Shown here: positions 6,021 to 38,085 of the stretch, one piece after another
Numbering within the stretch: the stretch's first letter is position 1
How the letters are laid out: the number at the start of each line of letters is the position of its first letter
Source of the DNA: an uncultured Spirochaetales bacterium
GTDB lineage: Bacteria > Myxococcota_A > UBA9160 > UBA6930
Assembly: GCA_964615365.1 (NCBI GenBank)
Contig: CAZTOU010000011.1
Coordinates: forward strand, 29,671 to 93,670
DNA: 64,000 nucleotides
Direction of reading: 5' to 3'
The notes under the pieces: generated by a model
What the model saw: the letters and a program-made list of their open reading frames with translations, nothing else
The model's database searches: none
Told to the model about the DNA's origin: nothing
Made by a program: the position numbers and the translations under genes

Positions 6021-7334
6021 GATCGGGAGTCTTGTTCCGCCGCCACCGCCGGGGTCTTCGGGAGCGAGCTGGGACGCTCTCCGAGAAACCTCCGGGTCGG
6101 GGCGCTCGGCGACTGGATGAAGTCGGCCGACCCCGCGACCCGCGTCTTCTCCGTTTCCGGGAAGGACCGCGCCGCCATCACCCTGGCGGGGCACTCGCCG
6201 GATGCCGCCTACTGGTTCAACGGAATCGGCGCGGTCGGCTTCACCACCAGCCGATACTACCTGTCCGATCTCCCGCAATGGGTCCGGGAGTGGAACGGGC
6301 AGAGCCCACCCCGGGACGGCTTCCTGGCGCGGCTCCCCCACACCTGGGAACACCTCACCGACGTCGGCGAAGCGCCGCAGCGCCCCGACGACTTCCCGGG
6401 CGAGTCGGAGCGTTTCCGGCGCACCAGCGGCCACCCGCTCCGACACGAAGATCCCGAGGAGTTTGCTGCACGCCTGGCGGCATCCCCCTTCCTGGACGGC
6501 GCGATCCTCGAATTTGCCACCGCGCTGGTGCGAGAGGAGAAGCTGGGGCGCGGTTCGTCGCCCGACCTGCTGGCGCTCTCCCTCTCGGCGATGGACTACG
6601 TGGGGCATCTCTACGGCCCCGAGAGCCACGAGTCGCGGGACGCTCTCCGCCGGCTCGACCTCGCCCTCGGGCGCTTCCTCGACTTCCTGGAGCGGGAGCT
6701 CGGTCCGGGCACGGTGCTGGGCGTCCTGACCTCGGACCACGGAGTGCTGCCCCTCCCCGAATGGCTGGAGCGCACCGGCGAAGGCCAGTGCCCCGTCGCG
6801 GGCGGGCGCCCCGACTTGAGTCGCCTGGCCTTCGTGCTGCTCGGGAAGCTCCATTTCGAGCTCAGCCCGCTGCTCTCGATTCCGCGTCCGTGGCTGATCT
6901 TCGCGGGCTCCAAGCTGGGAGTCGATCGCGCCCTCGCCGAGCGCCACGGCGTCCCGGTGTCCGACGCGGTCGCCGCCGCGGAGCGGATTCTCGAGGCGGA
7001 GCCCTCCATCGCGGCGGCGTGGACCGCGGAGGAGATCGAGCACGGTACGGATTCCTTTGCGCGTCTCTACCGTAACTCCTGGGTCCCGGACCGCAGCGGC
7101 GATCTGATCATTCAGCTCGCGGCGGGCTGTCTCATCTCTCGAGAGGACGAGGGAACCACCCACGGTACGCCGTACCTCTACGACCGGGCGATTCCGCTCG
7201 TCTTCTGGGGCCCCCGGATCGAGGCTGGCCGGGTGCCCGGACCCGCCCGCACCGTCGACATCGCCCCGACCCTGGCGAGGCGGCTGGGAATCACCCCCCC
7301 GTCCGACCTCGACGGCCACCCCCTGTTCGACTGA
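6021..7334 (+). pseudogene. Alkaline-phosphatase/NPP-superfamily phosphoesterase, apparently 5'-truncated
   Basis: The frame opens only at 6021, after a TAA at 6018-6020. It retains the distal metal-ligand motifs (MDYVGHLYGP, LTSDHGV, THGTPY) but lacks the N-terminal DG.R / catalytic Thr-Ser segment. Only about 100 nt separate it from the divergent SH3 gene, so the missing ~130 aa have nowhere to be encoded. Confidence 0.55.
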
Positions 7335-7373
7335 AGGCCACCCAGGCTGCATCGCGGGCGGCGAACGGAGCGA

Positions 7374-7449
7374 TGGCTCCCCGGGTAGGACTCGAACCTA
7401 CGACCCAGCGGTTAACAGCCGCTTGCTCTGCCAGCTGAGCTACCGGGGA
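7374..7449 (-). tRNA. tRNA-Asn (anticodon GTT), CCA encoded
   Basis: The reverse complement reads TCCCCGGTAGCTCAGCTGGCAGAGCAAGCGGCTGTTAACCGCTGGGTCGTAGGTTCGAGTCCTACCCGGGGAGCCA. This gives a cloverleaf with anticodon loop CTGTTAA. Confidence 0.95.
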
Positions 7450-7507
7450 ACGAAGGGAGGGAAGTCTAGAAGCTGGAGCGGGGAGTGCAACGAGGTCGTC
7501 CCGCGCG

Positions 7508-8812
7508 CTATTCCGGCGCGATCGCCTCGACGACCTTGGAGGGAGGGGCCTCGGAGCCGTCCTCGCGGACCAGGATCACCTGGTAGCGGTAGCGGCGGCC
7601 GGGCTTGATCTCGCGATCGGCGAATTCCTCTCGGGGGACCTGGGCGATCTCGTCGCTGCCGAAGGTTCCGAGACGCAGGATCCGTGCGGCGGCGAAGCCC
7701 TCCTGGACCTCCGGGCTCCAGTGCAGGTAGATGGCGTCCTCCCGCGCCTCGGCGCGCAGTCCGTAGTCCACGCTCTCCACCTCCATGGGATCGGACGGCT
7801 CGCTCTCGAGGCCGTCTTCGTCGACGGCCACCACCGCGTAGGAGAGTCGTTCGCCGGCACCGATATCGCGGTCCTCGGCAGCGATATCGTCGGGCTCGAG
7901 GGTGGCGACGATCTCCTCGGAGTCGGCGTCGGAGTCCTCGCGCATCCGCAGCAGCCGGTAGCCGGCGATGTCCTTCTCCACGTTGGGCTCCCAGGCCAGC
8001 CGGTTCGATCCGAGCTGCTGCGCCGCAAGCCGCAGGCCGATCGGGGGGAGGGGCTCGGGCTTGGTCACCGCGCGGACGGTGGGAGTCGCTTCGCCCACGC
8101 CGCGGGCGCTGTTCTCGGCGGCGACCCGGTAGTAGAAGACGCGCAGCGCACCGAGCCCCTCGTCGGCGTAGGTCGTGGAGAAGGGACCGTCGAGCCGGGC
8201 GATCATGAGGTACTCCCCCTGCTTCGAGGGGCTCCGGTAGACCAGATAGCCCGCAGTCGTGGGGTCGAGGGACGGTCGCCAGGAGAGAGCCACCTCCCGT
8301 GGCTGGAGGCTGTAGGCCTGAAGGCCCTCGGGCGGGGCCGGTGGCGGAGCCGTGGCCGCTCTGATCGGAGCGGAGGCCTCGCCGATTCGGCCGCCGGAGT
8401 CGAAGACGCGCACCTGATACCGGTAGCCGGCGCCATCTCCGAGATCGGCGCTCCCTCCGTTCGATCCCCCCTTGGGAGCGAGATCCTTCCCCCGGTCGAC
8501 GTAGCGGGTCTCGAAGCGCCCCTGGATCGCGGCGATTCGCTGGAAGGGCTCCTCCTTCTCCTCGGCCCGCTCGATCACGTATCCACACACGTCGCCCGTG
8601 AGCAGGGGGTCCCACTTGAGGGGAACGGATCGGAGCTGCCCCGAGATCGCTCGCAATCCCTCCGGTGCCGGCAGCTCGGCCGCGTGGAGCTCCACCAGAA
8701 CGGGGATGAGGGGGTCCTCGGCCCCCCGAAAGAGCTCGCGCGCGCGCTCCACGTCCAGAAGTGTCGAACACCCCAAGCTCAGGGAGACTCCAAGCACGAC
8801 GGCGAGCCTCAT
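7508..8812 (-). CDS. Lipoprotein with about four fibronectin type III-like repeats
   Basis: The internal Met followed by MRLAVVLGVSLSLGC (lipobox) is the likely start. Repeated Ig-like modules of about 95 aa each carry W.P......GY.(V/L)YR patterns. The start lies 5 nt from the upstream TPR gene stop. Confidence 0.75.
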   Translation of the reverse strand: MRLAVVLGVSLSLGCSTLLDVERARELFRGAEDPLIPVLVELHAAELPAPEGLRAISGQLRSVPLKWDPLLTGDVCGYVIERAEEKEEPFQRIAAIQGRFETRYVDRGKDLAPKGGSNGGSADLGDGAGYRYQVRVFDSGGRIGEASAPIRAATAPPPAPPEGLQAYSLQPREVALSWRPSLDPTTAGYLVYRSPSKQGEYLMIARLDGPFSTTYADEGLGALRVFYYRVAAENSARGVGEATPTVRAVTKPEPLPPIGLRLAAQQLGSNRLAWEPNVEKDIAGYRLLRMREDSDADSEEIVATLEPDDIAAEDRDIGAGERLSYAVVAVDEDGLESEPSDPMEVESVDYGLRAEAREDAIYLHWSPEVQEGFAAARILRLGTFGSDEIAQVPREEFADREIKPGRRYRYQVILVREDGSEAPPSKVVEAIAPE

Positions 8813-8816
8813 CGGA

Positions 8817-9896
8817 TCACGGCGCCTCCCCTCCGGCGACGACGGGTGCGTCGCGGAGCCGCTCGAGATTCTCCAGCAGCCTCTCCGCACGGGCGACGTA
8901 CTCCAGCGCCTGGGCGTTGTCCGGATCGATCAGCAGTGCGTTTCGCCACTGCTCCAGGGCCGCCTCGAGATCCTCCTGCTGGTAGTGATCCCGGCCCGAC
9001 TCGATCAGCGCCGTCACCGAAGGCAGCCTGCTGCGCAGCTCCGAGAGATGGATGCCGGCGATCCGATGGCTCGGGTTGACCTCCAGGGCCCGGATGTCGT
9101 ACTCGATCGCCTTGAAGAGATTCCCCGCGCGCTCGGCGCCGAGGGCATTCTGGAAGAAGCCCTCGGCTCGGATCTCCGCGTCCGTGGCGTCGAGCTGGGG
9201 CGGATCGGAGTGGCGCGCGTCTCTTCCGCGCGCGGACTTCTCCTCGTCGCGAATCTGGGCGATGAAGGAGAGGTGGCCCCGGGCGGTCTCGTTCTGGGGA
9301 TCGAGCTCGAGCACCCGCTGGAAGGCGCGTTCGCCGCTCCGGTAGTTGCCAGAGGAGAAGGCGCGCCGTCCCTTGGCCACCAGCGGCTTCACCAGGCGCC
9401 GCAGCGTCTCGTCGAGCTGACGCTCTTCCGTCGCGAGCCGGGGATCGAAGGGGTCGAGGGTGCGCAGGGAGGCCAGGTGACGCCTCGCCGCGACCATGTC
9501 GTCCGCCTCGTAGGCTTCGGCGAACTCGGTTCGCGCTTCTTCGCTGAGTGTCGCCAGCCTTCGAACCAACGACTGCACGGTGTCCAGGGTGGCGCGATCG
9601 CCCGGCTGGAGCTTGAGGGCGAGTCGGTAGTTGAGGACGGATTCCGCAAGTCTCCCCCTCCGCTCGTAGTAGCCGCCCCGCTTCTTGAACAGCACCACCA
9701 GCTGCTCGAGCTCGTTCTCGACCTCCGCGATGCGGCTCTGAATCGCCTCGTGGTAGAGGCTGTCGCTGCCGACGCTTCGCCAGCTCTCGAGCGCCGCCAC
9801 GCGGTCGCCCTCCCGATAGCGGCGCTCTCCCAGCTCGAGGGAGTTGATGCAGGAGACGAGGGCGAGAAGGAGCAGCAGGGAAAGGGCGCGGCTCAC
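8817..9896 (-). CDS. TPR-repeat lipoprotein
   Basis: 359 aa with a signal/lipobox (LLLLALVSC) and multiple 34-aa TPR-like repeats (A..Y..AL.l.P....A). Its start overlaps the upstream cyclase stop by 4 nt. Confidence 0.75.
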   Translation of the reverse strand: MSRALSLLLLLALVSCINSLELGERRYREGDRVAALESWRSVGSDSLYHEAIQSRIAEVENELEQLVVLFKKRGGYYERRGRLAESVLNYRLALKLQPGDRATLDTVQSLVRRLATLSEEARTEFAEAYEADDMVAARRHLASLRTLDPFDPRLATEERQLDETLRRLVKPLVAKGRRAFSSGNYRSGERAFQRVLELDPQNETARGHLSFIAQIRDEEKSARGRDARHSDPPQLDATDAEIRAEGFFQNALGAERAGNLFKAIEYDIRALEVNPSHRIAGIHLSELRSRLPSVTALIESGRDHYQQEDLEAALEQWRNALLIDPDNAQALEYVARAERLLENLERLRDAPVVAGGEAP

Positions 9897-11341
9897 GTTG
9901 GCTCCGCGTGGTCACCCTCTCCCGCGACCCTCGCGGTCGTTGGCGACAGGTCCACGGAGTATACGTGAACGGGCTCCACGCGACCGGACAGCTGGCGCTC
10001 TCCCTCGAACCGCAGCGCCACGTTTCCCCGAACCCGCCGCTGGACGGCCTCGGAGACCAGGATCTCGCCGGGTCGGGCCAGCTTCTCCAGGCGGTGGGCC
10101 ACGTTCACCGCGTCGCCCACCGCGGTGAAGTCGGTGCGCCGGTCGGAGCCGATGGTGCCGACCACCACCGCCCCGGTATGGATGCCGATGCCGACCTCCG
10201 CCCGGTGGGCGTCCTCGCCCAGCTTCAAGTTTCGCTCGGCGACCGCCTGCGCGATGTGGATGGCGGCGTTCACCGCATGCACGGCGTGGTCGGGATCCGG
10301 CACCGGCGCGCCGAAGTACGCCATCACCGAGTCGCCGATGAACTTGTCGATGGTGCCCCCTTCGGCGAGGAGGCGATCCGAGGCGAGCTGGAAGATCTCG
10401 TTCAGCAGCGCGACCACGTCACGCGCCTTGAGCCCCTCGGAGAGTCGCGTGAAGCTGCGAATGTCCGCGAACACGATGGTGACCTCGCGCTCCGCACCCT
10501 CCAGCTCGGTTCCCTCGGGGCTCTCCAGCAGCGTGTTGAGGACGTAGTCGCTGGCGTAGCGGCCGAAGGCCTTCTGGATCCGCTCCTTCTGCAGGAGCGA
10601 TTCGCCCATCATGTTGAAAGACCGCGTGAGCTCGCCGACTTCGTCCCGAGAGGTCGGCGGAATGCGCGTGGCCAGGTCGCCGTCGGCGAGTCGCTCGACG
10701 CCGGAGCGGAGGCGGCGCAGGGGGCCGACCAGGAGCGCGACGAAGCTGATTCCACCGGCGATGCCCAGCGCCACGACAGCGAGGGCGAGGGCGGCGAGCT
10801 GCCGCTGGCTCTCCGCCACCACGGGCTCGACCAGGACACCGAGGTCGAGCTCGATCTGGGCCTCCCCCACCTGCACGCCGCTCAGCACCACCGCCGCTGC
10901 CACCACCAGGTCGTCGCCGCGCCGCTCGATCACGGTCCGGCTCGGCGTCTCCGCGCTCCCCAGCAGGAAGCGCCCCTCTCGGCTGTATTCACTGGAATCC
11001 AGGGAGGCGACGATCCTCTCGGTGATGCCCCCGGATTCGGGGGTCTCGCGTCGGATCAGGCGCGCCCCGACCACACCCGGCTCCTCGCCGAGCTGCTGGA
11101 CGATGGCGTCGGTGAGCCGGTTCTCCCAGATCTCGAGGGGCTCGTCGGAGTTCTCGCCGGCCTCCATCAAGAGGATCTGGGCGACGCCGACCAAGTTGGT
11201 GGCGAGGGCGACACCGCGCTTGCCCACCTCGGATTCCAGCGCGGCGCGCTCGTGCCGGGTGGCCATCCAGGCCAGGCTGACGGACGCGGCGACCAGCAGT
11301 GTGGTCACCAGTGCGCTGAACTTCAGTTGCAGCGATCGCAC
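9893..11341 (-). CDS. Membrane-bound HAMP-domain class III adenylate/guanylate cyclase
   Basis: 482 aa: N-terminal TM, a periplasmic segment, a second TM, a HAMP segment (LRRLRSGVERLADGDLATRIP..DEVGEL) and a CHD cyclase core (VTIVFADIRSFT, GDSVMAYFG, GIHTGAVVVGTIG). Confidence 0.88.
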   Translation of the reverse strand: MRSLQLKFSALVTTLLVAASVSLAWMATRHERAALESEVGKRGVALATNLVGVAQILLMEAGENSDEPLEIWENRLTDAIVQQLGEEPGVVGARLIRRETPESGGITERIVASLDSSEYSREGRFLLGSAETPSRTVIERRGDDLVVAAAVVLSGVQVGEAQIELDLGVLVEPVVAESQRQLAALALAVVALGIAGGISFVALLVGPLRRLRSGVERLADGDLATRIPPTSRDEVGELTRSFNMMGESLLQKERIQKAFGRYASDYVLNTLLESPEGTELEGAEREVTIVFADIRSFTRLSEGLKARDVVALLNEIFQLASDRLLAEGGTIDKFIGDSVMAYFGAPVPDPDHAVHAVNAAIHIAQAVAERNLKLGEDAHRAEVGIGIHTGAVVVGTIGSDRRTDFTAVGDAVNVAHRLEKLARPGEILVSEAVQRRVRGNVALRFEGERQLSGRVEPVHVYSVDLSPTTARVAGEGDHAEPT

Positions 11342-14436: not shown

Positions 14437-15312
14437 TCAATGGCTTCTCGATGTCGCAGCACTTCCCATCAGCATGTACTGCCCCACCTCCGCGCCAGCG
14501 GACCGGCTGATGACCGGACACTTGACCCGGAACAGGAAGTAGATGTTTCCGGGTGCGTCGCTGAGCGTCTCGAAGTTCCCCTGGCCCTTGGCGATGATCA
14601 CTTCCGCGGCTTCGAAGAGGGTGCGGACTTCCGGGCGGACCTCGGCGAGGACCGTTCCCGGTGCGTCGTTTCCGGTGTCGAGGACGGGGACCAACCGATC
14701 GAGCCCCGCGAAGCGAGCATCTTCGAGAGTGGCATCGTTCAGAACCGGCTGGCCGCGGACTGCGAAGGTGATGTCGGCAGCGGAGTACCGTTTCAGCACC
14801 TCGACCAGCAGCCGGTCGAACACGATCTCTCCGGCATTGTCTCCGAGGTAGAGCACGGAGCGGGCCTGCGAGACGTCTGCCTTGAACGCCGCGTAGTCCA
14901 TCACCCCGAACGAGGCGCTTTCCGCGTCGCGCCACTCCCGGTCGAAGTCGAAGCCGCCCGCCATGGCCCCGAAGTCGATCACGTTGCCTGCGATCGAGAG
15001 CCGGACCGCCAGCTCGAGTGGATCCTCGGCCCGTTCCACCATGGCTCGGAGCCGGGGCAGGAGGGCGAGTGCCCGGGTGTTGTACTCGCGCTTCCTGCCC
15101 GCGTAGGGGTCCGGGTTCTCGGAGACCTCTCGAATCAGGCGGTGTGTCCTGCGCGCGATCTCCGGCGGAGAGAGGTCATGGGGGAGCTCCATCAGCATCC
15201 CCATGACCCCGTTCAAGATCTCCCGTTGCCGCGCCGGGTCCGTCGAGGCCACCCTGGCCGCTTCGAGAGCCTGCTTTAGCAGGCAGGGAAGACAATCGAG
15301 CTGTGTCCTCAC
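14437..15312 (-). CDS. DUF89/ARMT1-family damage-control phosphatase-like protein
   Basis: 291 aa with an N-terminal C.PC motif (LDCLPCLLKQ) and the metal-binding motifs LGDNAGEIVFD and KGQGNFETL. Confidence 0.8.
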   Translation of the reverse strand: MRTQLDCLPCLLKQALEAARVASTDPARQREILNGVMGMLMELPHDLSPPEIARRTHRLIREVSENPDPYAGRKREYNTRALALLPRLRAMVERAEDPLELAVRLSIAGNVIDFGAMAGGFDFDREWRDAESASFGVMDYAAFKADVSQARSVLYLGDNAGEIVFDRLLVEVLKRYSAADITFAVRGQPVLNDATLEDARFAGLDRLVPVLDTGNDAPGTVLAEVRPEVRTLFEAAEVIIAKGQGNFETLSDAPGNIYFLFRVKCPVISRSAGAEVGQYMLMGSAATSRSH

Positions 15313-15550
15313 GGATGCTGGATCCCCTGGTTCCTGGCGGATCCTCGCAAATTCTCGGTCAGATGCATTCCGTTTTCTCTATCCCTTGTTCGAATCACGC
15401 GAACCCGGTCGAGCCGGCGTCGTGACGACATCTCCTCGCCGGGGAATCGGCGGCTATCATGATCGGAACCTCTCCGCGGAGGATCCGGTCTCTTGTCGGA
15501 AGGGGAGGGCGACCGGAGGCGGGTCATCCCGATCTCGGAAGGGGCTCCCG

Positions 15551-17101
15551 ATGATGCAGGTACTGAGCGAGGAACAACTGGATCGCATCCACGATGCGTC
15601 GCTTCGGCTCCTGGAGAGCAACGGCGTGACGTTTCACGGGAGCTCCGAGGCCGTCCAGGTGCTAGGCGAGCACGGCTGCCGCGTCGATGGCTTCCGCGTG
15701 CGCTTTCCGAGGGCGATGGTCGAGGAGTCCCTCGGTCTCGTACCCGACCGCAACCGGCTCTACTTCGACTACGCGCCTCTGGCCGTGGCCGAGCCGATGA
15801 GCCTGACGAAGGGCGAGAGCCACGTCGGGCTGATCGGGAATGCCTTCTACGTCTACGACTTCGAGCGGGGATCGCACCGGGACTGCGTCGAGGCGGACGA
15901 GCCCGACAAGTCCCTGGTCCTCGATACCCTGGAGAACGTGGAGTTCGACTGCTGCAATCTCGTCTTCCATTCCGAGCGGGTGGGCAAGAGGACCCCGCCG
16001 GACTTCAGCGTCGTGGAGAACGCGACCAGTCTGCTTCGATGCCGGGTCCAGGACAGGGCTCGTGCGCTCGCGCTGACGGGTCGGGATCCGAACACGCTTC
16101 CGATGCGACTGCTCAGCCGGACCGGTCAGGAGTGGCTCCTCGAGGGGCTGAGCATCCTGGCGTTGCAGGGACGAGCGGATGGAGAAGCGCTGATCGAGAG
16201 GTGCTTCATTCCGTTCGTCTGGTGCAATCCCAAGAGCCCCCTCCAGTACTCCGCCGAGGAGACCGCGGGCATCATCCGGGTGGCGAGGAGCACCGCGGCG
16301 TCGCGTTGGGCGATGATCTCGCCGGAGGTCATGCTGGGTGCGACGGGTCCCGTTACCGTCGCCGGCGCGCTGGTGCAGCACAACGCGGAGGTGCTCGCCG
16401 GGGTCATCCTGGCGCAGCGGGTGCAGGCGGGCACCCCGGTCATCTACGGGTGCGTCAGCGCCCCCATGGACCTTCGCACGGCCGAGATCTCGCAGGGCAG
16501 CTTCGAGACCGCCCTGATCAACGCCGCCTCCGTCCAGCTGGCCGATCGCTACGGGTTGCCCTCCCGTATCGCTCCGGGCAACACCAGTGCCCGCCAGCCC
16601 GGCGTCCGGGCGGCGGTGGAGCTCACGCTGGGCCTGCACATGGGACTGGCTGCGGGAGGCAATCTCATCACCACCGGGCTGCTCGATTCCACCGTGATGG
16701 TCAGCTACGAGCACACCGTCCTGCTGGACGAGCTGGTCGGGCAGCTCAAGAGCGCCACGCAGGGCATCCGGACCGACGAGAGCGGAATGGCCCAGGACGT
16801 CCTCCGCGAGCACGGCAACCCCTCGCCCGACTTCCTCGGCGCCGATCATACGCTCGAGCACATGAAGCGGGACGTCTACTACTCGGACTACACCGGCCGG
16901 ACCAAGCGGTCCTACGAAGACTGGTACGAGAAGGCGCACGCCCGCGTTGGACAGGTGCTCGATCGTCATCCGAACGACGCGCGTCTGGAGCCCGTCATCG
17001 AGGAGAGACTGGCAGCCGTCGAAGCGCGCCTGCGGGAGGACAACGAGAGCTGGCGCCGCGCAGAGGGCGATTGGTGGCAGTTCTACATCCAGGACTTCTA
17101 G
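15551..17101 (+). CDS. MttB-superfamily methyltransferase, non-pyrrolysine type
   Basis: The start is taken at ATGATG 15551 (MMQVLSEEQLDRIHDASLRLLESNGV, a typical MttB N-terminus), giving 516 aa. There is no in-frame TAG. The rest of the 632-aa track ORF upstream is non-coding leader. Confidence 0.75.
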   Translation: MMQVLSEEQLDRIHDASLRLLESNGVTFHGSSEAVQVLGEHGCRVDGFRVRFPRAMVEESLGLVPDRNRLYFDYAPLAVAEPMSLTKGESHVGLIGNAFYVYDFERGSHRDCVEADEPDKSLVLDTLENVEFDCCNLVFHSERVGKRTPPDFSVVENATSLLRCRVQDRARALALTGRDPNTLPMRLLSRTGQEWLLEGLSILALQGRADGEALIERCFIPFVWCNPKSPLQYSAEETAGIIRVARSTAASRWAMISPEVMLGATGPVTVAGALVQHNAEVLAGVILAQRVQAGTPVIYGCVSAPMDLRTAEISQGSFETALINAASVQLADRYGLPSRIAPGNTSARQPGVRAAVELTLGLHMGLAAGGNLITTGLLDSTVMVSYEHTVLLDELVGQLKSATQGIRTDESGMAQDVLREHGNPSPDFLGADHTLEHMKRDVYYSDYTGRTKRSYEDWYEKAHARVGQVLDRHPNDARLEPVIEERLAAVEARLREDNESWRRAEGDWWQFYIQDF

Positions 17102-17107
17102 CCCGCG

Positions 17108-17524
17108 TCAGCCTGCGCTGCGCATCGCCAATCGGTAGCCCACCACCCCCAGCACCATCGCGCCGACGAAGATCGCGACTTCCGGTGATCCGCGGAAGAG
17201 ATTCGCGAGGGCCGGGCCCGGGCAGAGCCCCACCAATCCCCAGCCCGCTCCGAAGAGCACGGCGCCGCCCAGGAGGGGGGCGTCGATGTCGCGCCGCGTC
17301 GGGATCGCGAAGGCTTCGCCCAGCCACGAGCGCTCGCGGCGGCGGGCGATCTGATAGCCGCCGGCACTCACCAGCAGCGCGCCGCCCATCACGAAAGCGA
17401 GGGTCGGATCCCAGCGGCCCGCGATGTCGAGGAAGGCCAGCACCTTGGCGGGGTTCGTCATGCCCGAGATGGCGAGGCCGGCGCCGAAGACGATTCCGCA
17501 GAGAGCCGCAACCCCGAGCTTCAT
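17108..17524 (-). CDS. YeeE/YedE-family small membrane protein (sulfur-compound transport component, second half)
   Basis: 138-aa protein with four hydrophobic helices and the motifs GMTNPAKV and GWGLVGLCPGPA. Its ATG overlaps the upstream paralogue's stop (ATGA). Confidence 0.75.
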   Translation of the reverse strand: MKLGVAALCGIVFGAGLAISGMTNPAKVLAFLDIAGRWDPTLAFVMGGALLVSAGGYQIARRRERSWLGEAFAIPTRRDIDAPLLGGAVLFGAGWGLVGLCPGPALANLFRGSPEVAIFVGAMVLGVVGYRLAMRSAG

Positions 17525-17955
17525 CCGGATCCCCCCAGCAGATGGCGAACGACGAAGACCGTCGCGCCCGCGGTGGCCATGAAGGTCAGGGTGGCGACGA
17601 TGGAGCGCCTCGAGCCGCGACCCATCCCGCAGACGCCGTGCCCGCTCGTGCAGCCGTTGCCGAGCTGGGTCCCGATGCCGACCAGGAGACCGCCGGCGAT
17701 CAGCAGCAGCGGGTTCGAAGCCATGGCAAAGCCCGGGATATCGCCGGTGAGGGTTGCGGCCAGCCAGGCCCCGAGCGGCAGGCCAGCCAAGAAGGCGATT
17801 CGCCACGGCAGGTCCTCACCGCGGGCGAAGAAGCCGCGGCCGAGGATCCCGCTGATCCCCGCGATCTTGCCGCCTGCCAGCAGAAGGACGGCACTCGCGA
17901 TGCCGATCAAGGCTCCGCCGAAGAGCCCGGCACCCGGTGTGAACGCGGCTTCCAT
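17521..17955 (-). CDS. YeeE/YedE-family small membrane protein (first half, conserved Cys motif)
   Basis: 144 aa with GNGCTSGHGVCG, the hallmark of the YeeE/YedE sulfur transport family. Confidence 0.78.
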   Translation of the reverse strand: MEAAFTPGAGLFGGALIGIASAVLLLAGGKIAGISGILGRGFFARGEDLPWRIAFLAGLPLGAWLAATLTGDIPGFAMASNPLLLIAGGLLVGIGTQLGNGCTSGHGVCGMGRGSRRSIVATLTFMATAGATVFVVRHLLGGSG

Positions 17956-18821
17956 CAGTCCGAACTCGTCCTCCCCAACCTGTCGAGGGGGATCTTGAGA
18001 TAGGAGGTTCCGTTCTCTTCCGGCTCCGGCAGCTCGCCGGCGCGGATGTTGACCTGAATCGAGGGCAGGATCAGGACCGGCGCCGCCAGCTCGGCGTCCC
18101 TCTTCTCGCGGAAGGCGACGAATTCGTCGCGGCTGGTGCGCGCGGTGATCTGGACATTGCCGCGCTTGTGCTCGGCGACGGTGGTTTCGTAGACGACGGG
18201 CCGGCCTCCCGGCTGGTAGTCGTGACACATGAAGAGCCGCGTCTCGTCGGGCAGGGCATAGAGGCGCTGGATGGAGTCGTAGAGCTCGGTGGCCGAGCCG
18301 CCGGGGAAGTCGCAGCGCGCCGCTCCGTAGTCGGGCGGGAAGAGCGTGTCGCCCACGAAGACGGCGTCGCCGATCTTCCACGACATGTGCGCCGGCGTAT
18401 GGCCCGGGGTGTGGAGAGCTTCCACTTCCAGGCTGCCGAACGGCAGACGATCCCCCTCATCGATCAGAAGATCGAACTGGCTGCCGTCCACGGGAAAGTC
18501 GTCGGCGAGGTGGTAGAGGTCGCGGAAGACGCGCTGGATCTCCCCGATGCTCGCGCCGGTCACCGTCTGTGCACCGTAGCGCTCCTTGAAGAAGGGAAGT
18601 CCCGTCATGTGGTCCGCGTGGGCGTGGGTATCCACGACGTAGGGGATCTCCAGTCCCTGGCTTGCGATGTAGGACGCCACGGTCTCCGACGACTCCCAGG
18701 AGGTGCGGGCGTTCTTGGGGTCGTAGTCCCTGACCGGGTCGATCACGACACCCGTCCGGCCGTCGTCGACCACGTAGGTGAGCGTCGAGGTCGCCTCGTG
18801 GAAGAAGTGCCGAACCCTCAC
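17955..18821 (-). CDS. MBL-fold metallo-hydrolase, persulfide-dioxygenase-like
   Basis: The GTG at 18821 with the SD gagggga gives VRVRHFFHEATSTLTYVV... It has the metal motif DTHAHADH and a later HTPGHTP. About 288 aa, a length typical of ETHE1/Blh-like enzymes. Confidence 0.75.
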   Translation of the reverse strand: MRVRHFFHEATSTLTYVVDDGRTGVVIDPVRDYDPKNARTSWESSETVASYIASQGLEIPYVVDTHAHADHMTGLPFFKERYGAQTVTGASIGEIQRVFRDLYHLADDFPVDGSQFDLLIDEGDRLPFGSLEVEALHTPGHTPAHMSWKIGDAVFVGDTLFPPDYGAARCDFPGGSATELYDSIQRLYALPDETRLFMCHDYQPGGRPVVYETTVAEHKRGNVQITARTSRDEFVAFREKRDAELAAPVLILPSIQVNIRAGELPEPEENGTSYLKIPLDRLGRTSSD

Positions 18822-18940
18822 AGCTCGTCCCCTCGCGTGCGTCCGGAGGCAGATGATCTGGTCACCGCTTCGGCACGCCACTCTACTCGAGGAGGTCCGC
18901 GTCTGTCGAATCGCTGGCAGTACTCCTGTGCACCGGCCCC

Positions 18941-19003
18941 AGACGAAAGCGCGGGCCCCGAAGGACCCGCGCCGTGCAAAACCCTGGCGGGTCTGCGTCT
19001 TTG
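18941..19003 (-). repeat. Double-hairpin terminator-like module, copy B (paralogue of the module downstream of tRNA-Pro)
   Basis: 28 nt (aaagcgcgggccccgaaggacccgcgc) are identical to 25717-25743. A second hairpin follows (minus strand GCAGACCC-GCCA-GGGUUUUGC) that keeps its pairing through changed bases relative to copy A. Confidence 0.6.
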
Positions 19004-19046
19004 TGCTTCCCGAGACAGGGCTGACACATCGTTCCGGACACATGGT

Positions 19047-20666: not shown

Positions 20667-21209
20667 GTGAATGACAGCTCCTATACCCCGCCCAAGCTCT
20701 GGACCTGGGACGCCGAAAGCGGCGGGAGCTTCGCCAAGATCAACCGGCCCATCGCCGGTGCCACCCACGAGAAGGAGCTTCCGGTCGGCGAGCATCCCCT
20801 GCAGCTCTATTCGCTGGCGACGCCCAACGGCGTGAAGGTGACGGTGATGCTGGAGGAGCTGCTGGCCCTGGGCAAGGACGCAGAGTACGACGCGTATCTC
20901 ATCAACATCGGCGAGGGCGACCAGTTCGGGAGGGGCTTCGTCGCCGCGAACCCCAACTCCAAGATCCCGGCCATGGTCGACCACAGCACGTCGCCGCCCA
21001 CACGGATCTTCGAGTCGGGCGCCATCCTGGTCTACCTGGCCGAGAAGTTCGGCGTCTTCCTCGACGCGAAGTCCTACACGAACGTCGTGCGCTGGGCGAC
21101 CGAGATCCAGGAGCGCCCTGCTCTCCAGCGGGGCGAGCGCGTCAACAAGGCCTGGGGCCCTGAGGAGCTGCGCCTTTCCGAGCGCCACTCCGCCAGCGAT
21201 TTCGACTGA
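20667..21209 (+). CDS. Nu-class (YghU-like) glutathione S-transferase with internal in-frame deletion (probably non-functional)
   Basis: The N-terminal 133 aa and the last ~45 aa align, from my memory of E. coli YghU, with KVWTWD..GG.FA.INRP..G.THEK.LPVG.HPLQLYS..TPNG.KV..MLEELLALG and SY..V.RWA.E..ERPA..RG..VN......L.ERH.ASDF. The roughly 100 aa of helical domain in between is absent (180 aa here versus roughly 280-290 for the family). Confidence 0.7.
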   Translation: MNDSSYTPPKLWTWDAESGGSFAKINRPIAGATHEKELPVGEHPLQLYSLATPNGVKVTVMLEELLALGKDAEYDAYLINIGEGDQFGRGFVAANPNSKIPAMVDHSTSPPTRIFESGAILVYLAEKFGVFLDAKSYTNVVRWATEIQERPALQRGERVNKAWGPEELRLSERHSASDFD

Positions 21210-21273
21210 GGCGTCCTATTCGCCACGGATCAAAGGCGGCTTTGATTTCAAACGGCAGAAGAAAGAGACACCC

Positions 21274-22398
21274 ATGCAGAACAAAGAACTTCAAGTGAGG
21301 GCGCTCTTCGAGAAGATGCTCGAGGACACCGAGGAATATGCCCGGACATACGAACACTATGTCGCGGACATGAAGAATTACAGCGCCAAGGTTCAATGGA
21401 AACTCGGTTCCGTCAGCGGATATCAAGTCTTCAGGGGACCGGAGTATTCGTTCAGGATCGATGCAGAGATCGAAGATCCGGATGTCTTGATCGAATGCGA
21501 TGACCTCAGAGATGCCAAGCAGTTCTTCAGGGATGGTTTCGAAGACATGCGCGACCTTGCGAATGCTGATTTCGAGATTACGGCACCGAAATCGGCAAGT
21601 CCTGCTCTCGCCGATTCATGGAGGCTGGCGAGTGCTCTCGTAGCGAAGATGCCGGCTTTCAGACCCATCATGGAGAGAACAGAAGGAGCCCAGCACTCAA
21701 CGGCCGTGGCAATTCCAATCAACCAATCCCTGGGTGAATTCAACAACGAAATACTGCCTGTTGCAGTCGTTGAGCACTTTATCAACAAGGCAAGCCATAT
21801 CTTCCTCTACGATCTATGCCCGTGTCGAGTAATGCGGAAGTGCGAGCACTTCGATCACTACAGTTTCGGGTGTATGTGCCTGGGTAGGGGTGTTCTGAGA
21901 ATGAAGCCCAATGACGGCCTTATCGTACAGGGGCATATCGGCACGAAAGAAGAGGCATTGCAGCGCGCGCGAAAGGCCGTTGAGGTCGGGCTGATCCCAG
22001 GCTTCGGCAGGCTCAGAAGCGATGCCATCAACCGTATCGGTGGGCCTATCCCGGATACAGGGGACCTCTTCAATCTGTGCTACTGCTGCCCGTGTTGCTG
22101 CGTCTTGAAGGGCGTGAAGTATGCACCGAGCTACTTGCGATCGATCTTCGGGAGATTGGAAGGGCTGACTGTTGCAGCAGACGAGGAGCTCTGTACCGAC
22201 TGTGGAGATTGCGCTGAAGCCTGCATTTTCGGTGGGCTGGAGATGGTGGATGGCAAGCTGCAGCGGGACGACGAGAAATGCTTTGGCTGCGGCAGATGTG
22301 AGGCAGTGTGTCCAACTGGAGCGGTCAGCATTGCGCTGGAAGAAGGCAGCGTGGAAAGAATGATCGCCCGAATTGAGGCCCAGGTTGATGTTACTTAG
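21274..22398 (+). CDS. Cys-rich Fe-S protein: SCP2-like N-terminus, two unusual Cys clusters and a C-terminal 2x[4Fe-4S] ferredoxin domain (foreign, AT-richer gene)
   Basis: 374 aa. The C-terminus has CTDCGDCAEAC...CFGCGRCEAVCP (a dicluster ferredoxin). Upstream clusters are LCPCRVMRKCEHFDHYSFGCMCLG and NLCYCCPCCCV. Codons frequently end in A/T, unlike all neighbouring genes. Confidence 0.7.
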   Translation: MQNKELQVRALFEKMLEDTEEYARTYEHYVADMKNYSAKVQWKLGSVSGYQVFRGPEYSFRIDAEIEDPDVLIECDDLRDAKQFFRDGFEDMRDLANADFEITAPKSASPALADSWRLASALVAKMPAFRPIMERTEGAQHSTAVAIPINQSLGEFNNEILPVAVVEHFINKASHIFLYDLCPCRVMRKCEHFDHYSFGCMCLGRGVLRMKPNDGLIVQGHIGTKEEALQRARKAVEVGLIPGFGRLRSDAINRIGGPIPDTGDLFNLCYCCPCCCVLKGVKYAPSYLRSIFGRLEGLTVAADEELCTDCGDCAEACIFGGLEMVDGKLQRDDEKCFGCGRCEAVCPTGAVSIALEEGSVERMIARIEAQVDVT

Positions 22399-22433
22399 AC
22401 AGGCTCGAAAACCCGTTCACCCTAGTGGACGGT

Positions 22434-22519
22434 GGCTGATAGGGCAAACAGGCTGGGTTCTGGATCGACGTCCGAGTAGGGACGTTTTGTCAAACCCCTC
22501 CGGGGGTCCCCTCGGCGGG
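22434..22519 (-). mobile_element. Solo IS91/ISCR-family oriIS-like terminal sequence, copy 1
   Basis: 86 bp, about 95% identical to 24487-24570. The minus strand ends ...CCCAGCCTGTTTGCCCTATCAGCC, which resembles the conserved oriIS core of IS91-family elements as I recall it. Confidence 0.55.
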
Positions 22520-22530
22520 GCACGCCGTAA

Positions 22531-23352
22531 TTCGCGCTTCACGAGCCTCCCGACTACAAGTCGGCACGGCACGATCCCGACATCAACCGCTGCTTCTACA
22601 CCATCGTCGGGTACGAGAATGCGGAGCAGGTGTCCGAGTACATTCTCCAGGCGACGGGGGGGCGACCCCCGGAGCGGCCCGCCGCTGGCACCTGGGTGAA
22701 CACGCTCTGGGATCCCAGTCAGGCCCCGCCCGGCAAGCACTCCATGAACGGCTGGTACTTCTTCCCCCGGGCATCCGATCTGACTCCGGCCGAGTGGGAG
22801 GAGCTGAAGCAGACCTACAACGGCCGCTTCCTGGCGCTTTGGGAGAAGTACGCGCCCAACATGACCCGCGACAACGTGATCGCCGACGCGCTCTACACGT
22901 CCTTCGAAATCGAGCAGGAGATGGGCATGCGGGAGGGGGGCTTCGGCCACGGGCGGCCCAAGACGGGCACGCTGGGTCTGGAGGGGGTGGGAGACCGATC
23001 CATAGGCTACACGCGGACCGGCGTCGAAGGCCTCTATCTGTGCGAGGGAGAGCAGCGTTTCTTCGTCGTCCTGCTGAACGACGGAAAGTGCACGGAATAC
23101 TACGAGGTGGACGAGGCGCCGCCCCGCAAGGAGTTCGACTTCATCTTCGAGATCCCCGCCGCCATCTTCGAGGAGGTGGCCGCCGGAATCGTCGATCCGG
23201 TGGAGGTCGGTCTCAAGGGCACCATCAAGATCACCGGTGACATGCGCATCCTGATCCGGCACGCGGACCTCGTCAACGTCGTGCAGGAGGTCTACGCAAG
23301 AGAGGTGGAGACCACCTGGCCGAAGGCTCAGCCGCCGTACCCAAATCCGTAG
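22531..23352 (+). pseudogene. 3' fragment of a CrtI-like FAD-dependent oxidoreductase fused to a C-terminal SCP2 domain
   Basis: The frame opens at 22531, immediately after the oriIS-like repeat (stop at 22528-22530). It contains only the C-terminal oxidoreductase part (..GGFGHG.P......Y.T.VEGLYLCE) followed by an SCP2-like tail (FIFEIPAAIFEEVAAG..DPVEVGLKGTIKITGDM). The N-terminal FAD-binding GxGxxG half is absent. Confidence 0.6.
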
Positions 23353-23384
23353 CCGGGTCGGAGGGGCAGGGCGCCTATCTGCGG

Positions 23385-24212
23385 ATGACGGCTCGTAAAC
23401 GGCGCTATCCTCCTGTGATGGCTCGAGTACGTAGAGAGCGCTCGCGGCGCCCCTTCGTCCGCCGTGTACGACACGTCGTGAGACCGTTCATCTCGCACCC
23501 GCTATCCAGATTGGCGGCGCTCCTGGTTCCGCTCTTGTATGTGGCCTACATGCGTCTGGTGTGGGTGACGAGTCGTGTGGATCCAGGGAACTTTCCGGAC
23601 CTGCATCGGATCGCCGCCGAGCACGGTGGCGCAATAGGGCTGCTCTGGCACGAGGAGGTGATGCTCGGCCCCTTCACGTACGCCCGTCTCGGATTTCGGC
23701 CCCACACACTCGCGAGCCTCGGGGACGCGGGGGACGTCGCCACACGCACCGTCAAGATGCTCGGCTACGTCGTGTTCAGGGGCGGCTCCACCCGCAGATC
23801 CTCGCGGCGGCGGGAACACATCCTGAAGGACATGATCGAGCACATGAGCGCTCGCGATGACGTCATCTATGGACTCACCGTGGACGGCTCCAAGGGCCCA
23901 CCGTATCGCATGAAGACAGGGGGGATCGTGATCGCACGGGACTGTGGAAAGCCGATCATCCTGGCCCGCGTCTGGATCAAGCGATGCATGCGGTTGAACA
24001 CCTGGGACCGGACCGCGATCCCCCTGCCGTTCAACCGGATTTCCTGCTACCTGCGTGGACCCTACTTCGTCCCCGAGGATGCGCACTCCGAGGATGGGCT
24101 GGAGGCGTTTCGCGACCGACTCGAGGACGACCTGATCGATTTGGCGGTTCACAGCTACGAGGAGATGGGACATCCCAGGCCGGAGAACCTCGTCAAGCGA
24201 AAAGACAATTGA
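23385..24212 (+). CDS. DUF374-domain (lysophospholipid acyltransferase-like) protein
   Basis: 275 aa with an N-terminal basic/TM segment, then WHEE....P, RGGS.R....L..M and DG.KGP....K.GG...A patterns typical of DUF374. Confidence 0.6.
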   Translation: MTARKRRYPPVMARVRRERSRRPFVRRVRHVVRPFISHPLSRLAALLVPLLYVAYMRLVWVTSRVDPGNFPDLHRIAAEHGGAIGLLWHEEVMLGPFTYARLGFRPHTLASLGDAGDVATRTVKMLGYVVFRGGSTRRSSRRREHILKDMIEHMSARDDVIYGLTVDGSKGPPYRMKTGGIVIARDCGKPIILARVWIKRCMRLNTWDRTAIPLPFNRISCYLRGPYFVPEDAHSEDGLEAFRDRLEDDLIDLAVHSYEEMGHPRPENLVKRKDN

Positions 24213-24486
24213 TGACATCCTGCTGACTGCGATTCACCCATCCGGAGAAGATCGACATCCGCCGCACCCGAATCCGCAGCCGGGTCGGAGGGGCAGGGCA
24301 CCCCGGAAGTCGCGAGCCGCCTCGGCACCTCCTCCGAGCCAGGAGCCACGAGAGCAGCGGCATCAGCAGGGCCAGCTCGACGCCGAGGCCGCAGCCTCCG
24401 GCCTCGCCTGCACCCCACGACGCGATGCAGCCGGGGTCGACCTCGGCGATCGGTACGCCGCCGTTGACGGACGCACCGCCATCGAA

Positions 24487-24570
24487 GGCTGATAGGGCAA
24501 ACAGGCTGGGTTCTGGATCGACGTCCGAGTAGGGACGCTATGTCAAACCCCTCGGGGTCCCCTCGGCGGG
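24487..24570 (-). mobile_element. IS91/ISCR-family oriIS-like terminal sequence, copy 2 (attached to transposase relic)
   Basis: 84 bp matching copy 1. It lies about 170 bp downstream (on the minus strand) of the transposase C-terminal fragment, which is where oriIS sits in IS91-family elements. Confidence 0.6.
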
Positions 24571-24740
24571 ACGATTTCATCGTGCGGGGGCGCCACGGGC
24601 CCCTTGCATCGGCTGGGAAGGGGATCATCGGGACCTGTTGCTCGACTCGCGCCGAGTCGCGGGCGCAGAGGAGCCGTCTGGGACGTGGTGGGGTCGAAAG
24701 GGGCGGGCCATGGACGCCGCCTCTACTCATGCGGCGGGTG

Positions 24741-25365
24741 CTACGGCTTGTCGTAGGCCGGGGTCTGATCGAATTGCCAGGTGGCTTCTTCGTGGGCGTG
24801 ATCCGGACCGTCGTGTGCCGAAGCCGGCTCGAGCGGAGGGGCGCGGGCGGGGAGTCCTAGGCATTTGAGAATCTTGCGGGCGACCGCGGGGTCTTCGATG
24901 GCCGCCATGAGTCGGAGGGTGGATACGCAGCGGGGGCAACGAAGCGCGTCAATTTCGAACACGCGCTGGAGCAACAACGCCCAGCGGTTTCGTCTAGATG
25001 TCAATCGTGCCGGTCCATCGCAGGATGGTTCGCTCTCCGGCGACCCGGACTCCCCCTGGGCTGACTGCTCCGGTTCGGCCTCGCCGTCCCTCAATGCGGC
25101 GGAGCGATTCGCGCCAGCTGCAGCTGCCTCCATCGGGCCCGGTTGTTCTGCCGAGACCCGCGCGGCGGCGAAGCTCTGCGAAGAGCGCTCGAACGAAGGC
25201 ACGGAGCTCCTGCTCGACAAAGCAGGGAGCGGGCTGATCTCTGCCTCGTGCGCGAGTGAGGAAGGGCTCGAGGTTCTCTCGGACGACCTCGTGGAGCAGG
25301 GTGTGCTCGGGCTGGTGGCGTTGATACTCGACGGCGCAGGATCTTCGCGGGACCGAGTGCTCCAC
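24741..25365 (-). mobile_element. Degenerate IS91-family (Y2, rolling-circle) transposase gene: N-terminal Zn-binding-domain fragment joined to a C-terminal fragment, catalytic core deleted
   Basis: Frame A (24994-25365) reads HQPEHTLLHEVVRENLEPFL....CFVEQELRAF, resembling the start of the IS91 Zn-binding domain. Frame B (24741 to about 25010) reads RWALLLQRVFEIDALRCPRC..TLRLMAAIEDPAVARKILKCLGLPARAPP, a typical IS91-family C-terminus. The ~250-aa Y2 core between them is missing and the two pieces are in different frames. Confidence 0.7.
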
Positions 25366-25710
25366 GGGAATCGGAGCAACTTCGGTGCCAATTGAGAACG
25401 GGTCGTCGGGCGCCGCTCACGGGTCCACTGCTGCCCGCCAGGTCGTGCCGCGCAGCGAAGGCCTTGTCGAATCACGTGGAGCCGAACCGAGCCGTGAACT
25501 TCGGGGCACGACGCCGCTGTAACTCCGGGTACTCAGCAATCCCCTGATAGGGGTTCGAGAGGCTGCTCTGCCCACGCGGACAGTTATCATATCCGCGCTA
25601 TCGCATTGGAATCTCTGTGGCGCGGACCAGGTGCGGTTCAGGTGGACCCTGGTTCGGGCGGTTTGAATCCACCCTGGGCTCCTGACCAGACGCCCGGGCC
25701 GGCGAACCCT

Positions 25711-25743
25711 CAGACAAAAGCGCGGGCCCCGAAGGACCCGCGC
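25711..25743 (-). terminator. Rho-independent terminator of tRNA-Pro (part of double-hairpin module, copy A, 25711-25778)
   Basis: The minus strand reads GCGCGGGUCC-UUCG-GGGCCCGCGC followed by UUUUGUCUG, about 40 nt after the tRNA 3' end. It is preceded by a second hairpin GCAAGCCC-GGCA-GGGGUUUGC (25752-25772). Confidence 0.75.
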
Positions 25744-25783: not shown

Positions 25784-25860
<77 letters not shown>

Positions 25861-36987: not shown

Positions 36988-37578
<591 letters not shown>

Positions 37579-37590
37579 GGCCCCGCCGCG

Positions 37591-38085
37591 TCAGTCCGAA
37601 AACAGATTATCGATGTCGTCGTCCGTGATTTCGTCGAACGGGCTTCCGGACTCGCCCACCGCGCTGTCCGCCTCCGACTTCTTCAGCATCTCTTCGAAGA
37701 TCTTCGCCAGTTCGTTGCCGGCCTTCTTGACGCGCAGGCGGACCAGACCCAGAGAGCTGCGATCGTCGAAGACCACCACGAGGATGATTCGCTTCGCGAC
37801 CAGAGTGACGTGGAGGTTGTCGCGGACACCCTGGTGGAAGTGAACCGGGAAATCCTCTTCGCCAATGATCTTCGCCAGACCCCCGGTGGCCGCGATGCTT
37901 CCCGCGGTCAGGGAGGCGAGGCTGGTGGTGTCGATCCCACCGACCTCGCCGGCCTCGGCGATGAGCTGCCCGTTCTTCTCGACTACGAAGAGTGCCTTGG
38001 CGTTGGCGTCGCGAACGAGTCGGTTGATGACCGCAAGGATTTTCCGGTAATCCTCGTCGTACATCACCAGCTGGGTGTCCATCAT
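37591..38085 (-). CDS. mglB: MglA GTPase-activating protein MglB (Roadblock/LC7)
   Basis: MDTQLVMYDED...DTTSLASLTAG..AA.GGLAK.IGE..F...FH.G......T.V.....LVV.FD.R.SLGLVRLR.KKA matches MglB. The start is taken at the ATGATG at 38085/38082. Confidence 0.92.
   Translation of the reverse strand: MMDTQLVMYDEDYRKILAVINRLVRDANAKALFVVEKNGQLIAEAGEVGGIDTTSLASLTAGSIAATGGLAKIIGEEDFPVHFHQGVRDNLHVTLVAKRIILVVVFDDRSSLGLVRLRVKKAGNELAKIFEEMLKKSEADSAVGESGSPFDEITDDDIDNLFSD

Follow-up and report, generated by a model that had tools for sequence, protein, structure and literature searches.

The stretch of DNA analysed here (hereafter the window) comprises 64,000 nt of a contig assigned to an uncultured Spirochaetales bacterium (GCA_964615365.1, contig CAZTOU010000011.1), and this study concerns a single gene at 21274–22398 on its plus strand. 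The gene is an intact open reading frame (ORF) encoding a 374-aa protein that consists, in this order, of a domain with an SCP2 fold, a Cys-rich core and a 2x[4Fe-4S] ferredoxin domain. It is a real, foreign and selectively maintained gene of an uncharacterised metalloprotein family, members of which are linked to genes for the nickel chaperones HypA and HypB in five bacterial phyla and in Asgard archaea. The family may credibly represent a new type of nickel or Fe-S enzyme, and the window gene is a compact member of it. The best reading of the protein, which stands at about an even chance of being correct, makes it a ferredoxin-fed reductase, possibly with nickel, that acts on a hydrophobic substrate as a stand-alone three-domain redox protein.

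The original prediction for this locus was a single AT-richer foreign gene, and both base composition and distribution bear this out. In 400-nt windows, GC content is 0.51–0.57 at about 21200–22400, compared with 0.62–0.72 on either side. Of all 1125-nt windows in the 64 kb, the one beginning at 21240 has the lowest GC (0.538; elsewhere mean 0.687, standard deviation (sd) 0.027, z −5.4). GC content at third codon positions (GC3) is 0.63 in this gene, whereas the 44 other genes of the window have a mean of 0.86 (sd 0.035), giving a z of −6.4.

Copies of the gene with 87–91% DNA identity are present in at least four unrelated contexts, with flanks of 0.59–0.68 GC and no common synteny. The copy at locus L101 (91% DNA identity to the window gene, flank GC 0.59) adjoins a paralogue and an IS1595 transposase gene, and that at L018 (90%, flank GC 0.61) belongs to an array of three paralogues in a metagenome-assembled genome (MAG) labelled 'delta proteobacterium'. 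Those at L102–L104 (87%, flank GC 0.68 in L102 and L103) have an amidohydrolase gene on one side and a luciferase-like gene on the other. All of these copies retain a gene GC of 0.51–0.54. In blastn comparisons, similarity among the copies begins 5–40 nt 5′ of the ATG (at 21233–21269, never farther upstream) and ends exactly at the stop codon. The leader at 21233–21273 (plus strand), which contains a purine-rich ribosome-binding region, is therefore the sole flanking DNA common to the copies, and the shared unit is essentially the ORF with its ribosome-binding site. Neither a sigma-70 promoter nor a plus-strand terminator was found around the gene. In the remoter relatives at L012 and L007, the surrounding DNA has a GC content of 44–50%, equal to the composition of the genes themselves, which suggests a donor pool of moderate GC near 45–50%.

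A native gene with odd composition caused by protein-level constraints would be conceivable in principle, and nothing beyond that speaks for it. GC3 is the most deviant measure, a genome scan of representative genomes of related high-GC lineages found the gene absent (best matches were in Dehalococcoidales, Thermodesulfobacteriota and Asgard archaea), and the 87–91% identical copies in unrelated contexts effectively refute this explanation, leaving it a negligible chance.

The L018 array (6615–10436, in a MAG of ~60% GC) consists of three family paralogues in a row, all of lower GC than the host: one of a type with a winged helix-turn-helix (wHTH) N-terminus, the copy of the window gene (90% identical in DNA and 92% in protein) and one resembling the SCP2-containing type of Asgard archaea. 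Two of the three look frameshifted, which may be an assembly error.

The imported gene has been kept functional. The ratio of nonsynonymous to synonymous substitution rates (dN/dS) is 0.17–0.18 when the window copy is compared with those at L101 and L102, and 0.13 between L101 and L102; among the three domains it is lowest in the central one (0.09–0.12). These low values indicate purifying selection rather than decay. The identical 374-aa protein is encoded on 16 contigs across several metagenome samples, such as JGI 3300009431, and the six contigs displayed keep the gene order of the window; the longest contig with the gene is 122 kb. The neighbourhood might suggest a decaying, non-functional passenger of a degenerate island, since the genes beside it survive only as remnants (yghU has an internal deletion, the crtI-like gene is truncated and the transposase gene is gutted; see below), no sigma-70-type promoter is seen and the window lacks hypA and hypB. 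Set against the intact ORF with every invariant residue present, the dN/dS of 0.13–0.18 relative to copies in other hosts and the recurrence of the identical protein, such decay is very improbable. The gene was thus acquired by horizontal transfer as a recent import into a GC-rich marine bacterium and is maintained by selection.

The domain order of the protein (SCP2 fold, Cys-rich part, di-[4Fe-4S]) is as originally predicted. An AlphaFold model built on 38 homologues has a mean predicted local distance difference test score (pLDDT) of 85 and a predicted template modelling score (pTM) of 0.81. The N-terminal domain (aa 1–125; 21274–21648, plus strand), modelled with pLDDT mostly of 88–98, is placed by Foldseek against PDB with AF1534 (3bn8/3cnu; E 2e-4 to 2e-3, probability 1.0, TM 0.64–0.67) and also with the C-terminal domains of the alkylsulfatases SdsA1 and Pisa1. 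In alkylsulfatases, the SCP2-fold C-terminal domain steers long alkyl chains to the catalytic site, and the domain in the window protein is presumed to bind a hydrophobic ligand. The claim of an SCP2-like N-terminus is thus supported for the predicted fold and not at the level of sequence: Pfam SCP2 (PF02036) gives no match to aa 1–138 at E ≤ 10, and hhalign against true SCP2 proteins encoded beside Asgard homologues gives a non-significant E of 0.15. The literature searched contained no example of an SCP2 fold fused to a Cys-rich/ferredoxin module.

The central alpha/beta Cys-rich core (aa 126–295; 21649–22158, plus strand) is the module that defines the family and a candidate metal or catalytic site. 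Both of its cysteine clusters are as first described. Motif 1, C182-P-C184-R-x4-C190-x9-C200(-x-C202), is encoded at 21817–21879 and motif 2, C269-Y-C271-C272-P-C274-C275-C276, at 22078–22101 (both plus strand). Among 38 full-length homologues, C184, C190, C200 and all six cysteines of motif 2 are invariant, C182 is more than 90% conserved and C202 is variable. The core as a whole has neither a described domain model nor a detectable solved fold: aa 126–295 match nothing in Pfam or NCBIfam even at E ≤ 10 and have no PDB relative by sequence, and a separate model of the core (pLDDT 75) finds no match by Foldseek against PDB (best E 4.2). The view that the protein fits no characterised family is upheld by these searches. 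A literature search for the CCPCCC motif yielded nothing relevant.

The C-terminal domain (aa 296–374; 22159–22395, plus strand) is a canonical dicluster ferredoxin, again as predicted. Its two CxxCxxCxxxC(P) motifs (C307, C310, C313, C317 and C336, C339, C342, C346) are invariant in the homologue alignment and are followed by a conserved C-terminal helix with the tail ...IARIExxVDVT. Pfam Fer4 families match aa 301–351 (E 1e-11 to 1e-8), with 44 bits against a cut-off of 21 for Fer4 (PF00037/PF12838 test) and 34.7 against 27 for Fer4_7, and Foldseek puts aa 296–360 with dicluster ferredoxins. In a PDB sequence search with the family profile, the ferredoxin domain alone was matched (e.g., by MvhB, FwdF, HdrA and PsaC). 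The likeness to PsaC, the polyferredoxins MvhB and FwdF and the C-terminal domain of HdrA extends to two canonical CxxCxxCxxxCP motifs in both sequence and fold, but covers just ~60 of the 374 residues.

A first search recovered 207 relatives, and an exhaustive profile search recovered 690 clusters at 50% identity, mostly from anaerobes; hydrocarbon- and fatty-acid-degrading syntrophs are among the organisms that carry the family. Full-length forms of 370–420 aa occur in Dehalococcoidales, in Thermodesulfobacteriota or 'Deltaproteobacteria' and in many Asgard archaea, and proteins of ~270 aa lack the SCP2 part. Four architectures can be distinguished, and the core is conserved across all of them. 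The first is that of the window protein, SCP2 fold, core and ferredoxin, with two SCP2 domains in some members. The second has a short amphipathic N-terminus before the core and ferredoxin (270–316 aa), and the third has a winged-helix (TrmB-like) N-terminus at the same place (330–460 aa). In the fourth, found in Desulfatibacillum alkenivorans DSM 16219 and in Desulfosudaceae, an extended short-chain dehydrogenase/reductase (SDR; PF01370/PF01073) precedes the core and ferredoxin (583–611 aa). Motif 1 (CxC[R/K]...C...C) is retained in every subfamily. Motif 2 varies: two divergent relatives have lost part or most of it, one reading CNCCGDCC and the other CYCDDTNC, with little kept past the first CxC. 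Based on these two relatives and the motif alignment, C182, C184, C190, C200, C269 and C271 are taken as the core set.

SDR fusions are present at L076 (6933–8768), L039, L041, L042 and L045, and their SDR is of the epimerase/3-beta-hydroxysteroid dehydrogenase type. A gene for a PaaK-like CoA ligase lies near the fusion in L042, L045 and L076, the last of which also carries a second family member. Because SDR-fused members carry PF01370 in front of the core, they are probably the source of the name 'UDP-glucose 4-epimerase' that JGI gives to many homologues; PF01370 is absent from the window protein. The NCBI name of some homologues, DUF362, does not apply either, as neither the Pfam matches of the window protein nor the precomputed domains of any homologue listed include PF04015. 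Together with 'PreA subunit' and 'ferredoxin', these current names are misleading, and Pfam and NCBIfam have no domain model for the core.

In a set of 80 loci (1.05 Mb) around family members, hypA is present in 15 and hypB in seven, usually within 700 bp of the family gene. These loci span five bacterial phyla and Asgard archaea, and their taxa include Syntrophomonadaceae, Smithella/Syntrophales, Leptospirales, Limnocylindrales and Dehalobacter; in the complete genome of Dehalobacter sp. DCM, hypA follows both family copies. A genome usually holds one or two copies of hypA, so that one hypA per 70 kb is a large enrichment, ~30-fold or more. A profile of the family-linked HypA proteins leads to a clade of 116-aa proteins (2901 matches), and when contexts were examined in the reverse direction, starting from this clade, all three consisted of HypA-HypB flanked by family members, as checked with a hidden Markov model (HMM) of the core; none of the three contained a hydrogenase. 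The HypA genes that served as controls, on plasmid replicons of Butyrivibrio and Parabacteroides, sit in [NiFe]-hydrogenase operons.

Besides these, paralogues and SDR genes recur near family genes, and in Asgard archaea so do genes for an MFS_2 transporter and a stand-alone SCP2 protein (PF02036, E 2e-7). At least two paralogues occur in 30 of 77 loci, and it is arrays of paralogues that adjoin the MFS_2 and SCP2 genes in Asgard genomes. Co-occurrence of homologues with genes for CrtI-like::SCP2 oxidoreductases was not borne out by this neighbourhood check.

Additional genes related to nickel clusters occur in four Asgard loci (L019, L024, L028 and L066). At a distance of ~3 kb from the family genes, these loci encode both an ATPase of the CooC/MinD type, which has a GCFCP motif, and a protein of 253 aa in which part of a CdhC domain (acetyl-CoA synthase beta subunit) is recognised. 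In Dehalobacter sp. DCM (L094; 7825–11473 and 14715–17304), a family gene followed by hypA is preceded by genes for a DAO/Pyr_redox_2-like flavoprotein and an unannotated 249-aa protein, and 5 kb downstream there is a CrtI-type gene of the amine-oxidase family (531 aa). At no other locus was a CrtI-like gene seen near a family member. In Spirochaetota MAGs (L046, L047, L049, L055, L065 and L080), the short form is single-copy and always upstream of miaB and mutS, and in several of these loci it is also next to gcvT/gcvH or a glnA-like gene. This conserved housekeeping setting hints at a core rather than an accessory role in that phylum.

In the literature, a single match emerged, an operon of Acetobacterium wieringae ISORED-2 for a putative isoprene reductase (Kronen et al., 2023; PMC10134865). 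IsrA is a protein of 901 aa, the first ~270 residues of which have no predicted domain. This N-terminus contains six spatially clustered cysteines ('cluster V / Cys6'), including CxC pairs at 180/182 and 254/256; a ferredoxin-type domain begins at residue 289, and an NfnB-like flavin module comes next (PMC10134865). The operon has the order isrA-hypA-hypB-'4Fe-4S ferredoxin'-hypA, in which the '4Fe-4S ferredoxin' consists of the same 270-residue domain and a ferredoxin domain (PMC10134865). For 988 IsrA homologues, hypA lies no more than five genes away in 73% of cases and hypB in 56%, and the Cys6 site was proposed by the authors as a possible nickel site beside a substrate tunnel (PMC10134865).

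The corresponding CxC pairs of the window protein occupy positions 182/184 and 269/271, and its ferredoxin domain starts ~38 residues after motif 2, with C307 as the first cysteine. The CxC positions, the ferredoxin domain that follows and the pairing of a family gene with a subsequent hypA are the reasons why the core appears to be the N-terminal 'cluster V / Cys6' module of IsrA. By motif comparison, both proteins have an unannotated domain bearing two CxC pairs and further cysteines before a ferredoxin-type domain. IsrA and the wider family of the window protein also have in common a link to hypA/hypB in organisms or contexts that lack [NiFe]-hydrogenase genes. For IsrA, the proposed substrate is a hydrophobic hydrocarbon, and the SCP2 fold of the window protein points in that direction too; both genes lie in mobile or dynamic genome regions. 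Several differences are evident. The N-terminus of the window protein has an SCP2 fold, its second motif is longer (CxCCPCCC, where IsrA has just CxC), and the window gene has neither hypA nor hypB nearby. At 374 aa and with no flavin module, the window protein is therefore not a member of IsrA clade 9, and at most the N-terminal module is common to the two; the window protein would be a stand-alone, SCP2-fused version of that module.

No IsrA-type sequence was recovered by a core-profile search of a 5.8-billion-protein set. Proteins of ~900 aa were absent from the best 150 of the 690 profile matches and from an HMM scan of every ORF in 78 genome loci. For the IsrA type, tblastn against plasmids returned only a wHTH-type family member in Acetoanaerobium, and walks from HypA led to family members or ordinary hydrogenase operons, with no IsrA-type sequence.

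In the proposed mechanism, the C-terminal 2x[4Fe-4S] domain would accept low-potential electrons from an external donor and pass them to an unusual metal centre on the invariant cysteines of the central domain. The ligands of this centre may be the six core cysteines (two CxC pairs and two single cysteines), with four more in CYCCPCCC. In relatives, the centre is probably matured by the dedicated HypA/HypB nickel chaperones, for which reason it could be a Ni-Fe-S site or a non-standard Fe-S cluster. The molecule to be reduced would be hydrophobic (an isoprenoid, an alkene or a lipid, for instance) and would be presented by the SCP2-fold domain; the predicted fold and the stand-alone SCP2 neighbour in Asgard loci both count towards a substrate of this kind. 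This proposed arrangement resembles the A-cluster of acetyl-CoA synthase, the C-cluster of carbon monoxide dehydrogenase and [NiFe]-hydrogenase in having a Cys-dense site beside [4Fe-4S] relay clusters and, in family relatives, a co-located nickel chaperone system such as the dedicated chaperones of Ni-Fe-S sites; no sequence or fold similarity of the window protein to these three enzymes was detected.

A number of points weigh against a nickel-containing reductase. The HypA/HypB linkage is found mostly in the short and wHTH subfamilies: hypA is near just three SCP2-type loci, all of them Asgard, it was not found near the close bacterial SCP2-type relatives examined, and neither hypA nor hypB is encoded within the 64-kb window. 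The ten core cysteines could bind two ordinary [4Fe-4S] clusters. The SCP2 assignment of the N-terminus is structural, at fold level, and the likeness of the core to the IsrA module comes from the published description and motifs rather than from an alignment. The NfnB/GltD-like FAD/NAD(P)H module of IsrA (PF14691, PF07992) and its further ferredoxin domain are absent from the window protein. IsrA is itself biochemically uncharacterised, and still so in 2026 preprints; for the isr-operon ferredoxin, Kronen et al. reported no association with HypA/HypB (PMC10134865).

The main rival reading is a mere electron carrier, i.e., a polyferredoxin-like wire to a separate catalytic partner, with one or two ordinary Fe-S clusters in the core and the SCP2 domain as a docking or membrane module. 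Ferredoxin-type domains are the only recognisable ones in the window protein, the related protein of the isr operon is annotated as a ferredoxin accessory to IsrA, and family genes are often near genes for oxidoreductases (NMO, SDR, HdrA-like proteins and acyl-CoA dehydrogenases). A mere carrier, however, would leave the dedicated HypA/HypB pairs unexplained; constraint is strongest in the core, the occurrence of SCP2 and extended-SDR fusions suggests substrate handling, and the gene spreads and persists as a singleton with no fixed partner. A carrier role is accordingly judged possible but rather unlikely, and a ferredoxin-fed reductase remains the preferred reading.

If that reading is extended to the whole family, the core might represent a new class of nickel-dependent (Ni-Fe-S) enzymes that reduce unactivated hydrophobic substrates (isoprenoids, alkenes or lipids) and are matured by a hydrogenase-unrelated clade of HypA/HypB. 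The SCP2-fused form, with its paralogue arrays in Asgard archaea and Dehalococcoidia, would then be a self-contained version that spreads by gene-sized transfers into GC-rich marine bacteria. This extension is tentative and, taken as a whole, doubtful. Were the core to hold a nickel or otherwise unusual Fe-S centre, the few known types of nickel enzyme would gain another. Such a centre would also make the 374-aa single polypeptide a tractable model for IsrA chemistry, i.e., the hydrogenation of unactivated C=C bonds, an activity of the 901-aa IsrA that has been proposed and never shown. Whether hydrophobic electron acceptors or lipid modification matter ecologically in anoxic and low-oxygen waters is a question raised by three observations: in Asgard archaea, paralogue arrays adjoin genes for transporters and SCP2 proteins; syntrophs that degrade hydrocarbons and fatty acids carry the family; and this single gene has been transferred repeatedly and recently into unrelated hosts of high GC.

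The gene has inserted into a mosaic region made up of remnants of genes, one of them from the IS91 family, together with a tRNA gene. The left neighbour (20667–21209, plus strand; NCBIfam PRK11752; native GC3 of 0.92) is a YghU-type glutathione-transferase gene with an in-frame internal deletion. PRK11752 matches its 180-aa product in two stretches, the better being aa 1–132 against profile positions 1–133 of 287. The N-terminal 132 aa and the C-terminal tail of a YghU-type glutathione-dependent disulfide oxidoreductase have been kept, and ~110 internal residues have been lost.

To the right, an 85-nt direct repeat, possibly a solo IS91-family end, begins 35 nt past the stop codon of the 374-aa gene (copy 1, 22434–22518) and recurs ~170 nt downstream of the stop codon of a transposase remnant (copy 2, 24487–24571). 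The repeat was computed as 71 nt at 96% identity and extended by eye to ~85 nt; a 20-mer from it occurs twice in the window, against 0.02 expected. Immediately after copy 1, a reading frame of native composition opens (22529–23352, plus strand) that encodes the C-terminal fragment of a CrtI/CrtO-type protein. What had been taken for a CrtI-like::SCP2 oxidoreductase is just a 5′-truncated remnant, matching positions 379–483 of 563 in the NCBIfam CrtO profile and bearing a weak SCP2-like tail below the curated Pfam cut-off (E 0.002). As a truncated fragment that starts at the repeat boundary, it cannot be used as a functional partner of the 374-aa protein.

The heavily deleted IS91/ISCR-family transposase remnant (24741–25365, minus strand) consists of ~60 aa of the N-terminus and ~90 aa of the C-terminus. 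It matches NCBIfam ISCR_clade_Ia at profile positions 440–485 of 509 (E 1.2e-6). In tblastn, its C-terminal piece matches at least 5000 plasmid records, and some of the matches listed are annotated as IS91 family transposase; its N-terminal piece matches Sandaracinus transposases. At the DNA level, the transposase region has no match in plasmids. A tRNA-Pro(CGG) gene identified by ARAGORN (25784–25860, minus strand) marks the edge of the mosaic region.

These features raise the question of whether the 374-aa gene is cargo captured and delivered by an ISCR/IS91 rolling-circle element, as the original prediction had it. A transposase remnant of this family lies 2.3 kb away, the 85-nt sequence near its stop codon recurs 35 nt past the gene, and 'sandwich' structures with two oriIS copies have been published for ISCR28. 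However, the transposase is gutted and the two repeat copies bracket 22519–24486, i.e., the CrtI fragment and a DUF374 gene, leaving the 374-aa gene outside. The remnant and the repeat are real, whereas 'oriIS' is a putative label given by position, which would suit an IS91-type end. The repeat was not found elsewhere: its first 24 nt have no match in a metagenome scan, it has no match in plasmids either, and as single-stranded DNA it folds no better than shuffled sequence (z −0.24). The other copies examined are not linked to ISCR elements. No IS91/ISCR-family gene was called on their contigs, one of which carries the IS1595 transposase gene; they lack the 85-nt repeat and have no common flanks, and similarity between them stops at the ORF borders. 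ISCR-mediated capture is thus a possible but unlikely route, and the claim of capture is not supported.

Additional repeats and genes are present in this region. The DUF374 gene between the two repeat copies (23385–24212) is apparently intact. A second repeat of 47 nt, 89% identical (23329–23375 and 24256–24302), follows both the CrtI fragment and the DUF374 gene, which suggests a duplicated or recombined junction. A GC-rich, hairpin-like repeat of 36 nt, 94% identical (18937–18972 and 25708–25743), frames the whole 6.8-kb mosaic region; one copy is beside the tRNA-Pro gene and the other lies between a gene for a metallo-beta-lactamase-fold protein and an old yellow enzyme (OYE) gene. Upstream, a cluster at 15203–19043 encodes a non-pyrrolysine methyltransferase of the MttB family, two YeeE/YedE-type sulfur-transport proteins (Sulf_transp and DUF6691) and the metallo-beta-lactamase-fold protein; the Pfam labels of this cluster were taken from an identical JGI contig. 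Elsewhere in the window, two ORFs of 907 aa have no relationship to each other. The second-lowest GC stretch lies near 37154 (0.604), at two small ORFs with an unusually low GC content of 0.36 at second codon positions (36988–38106).

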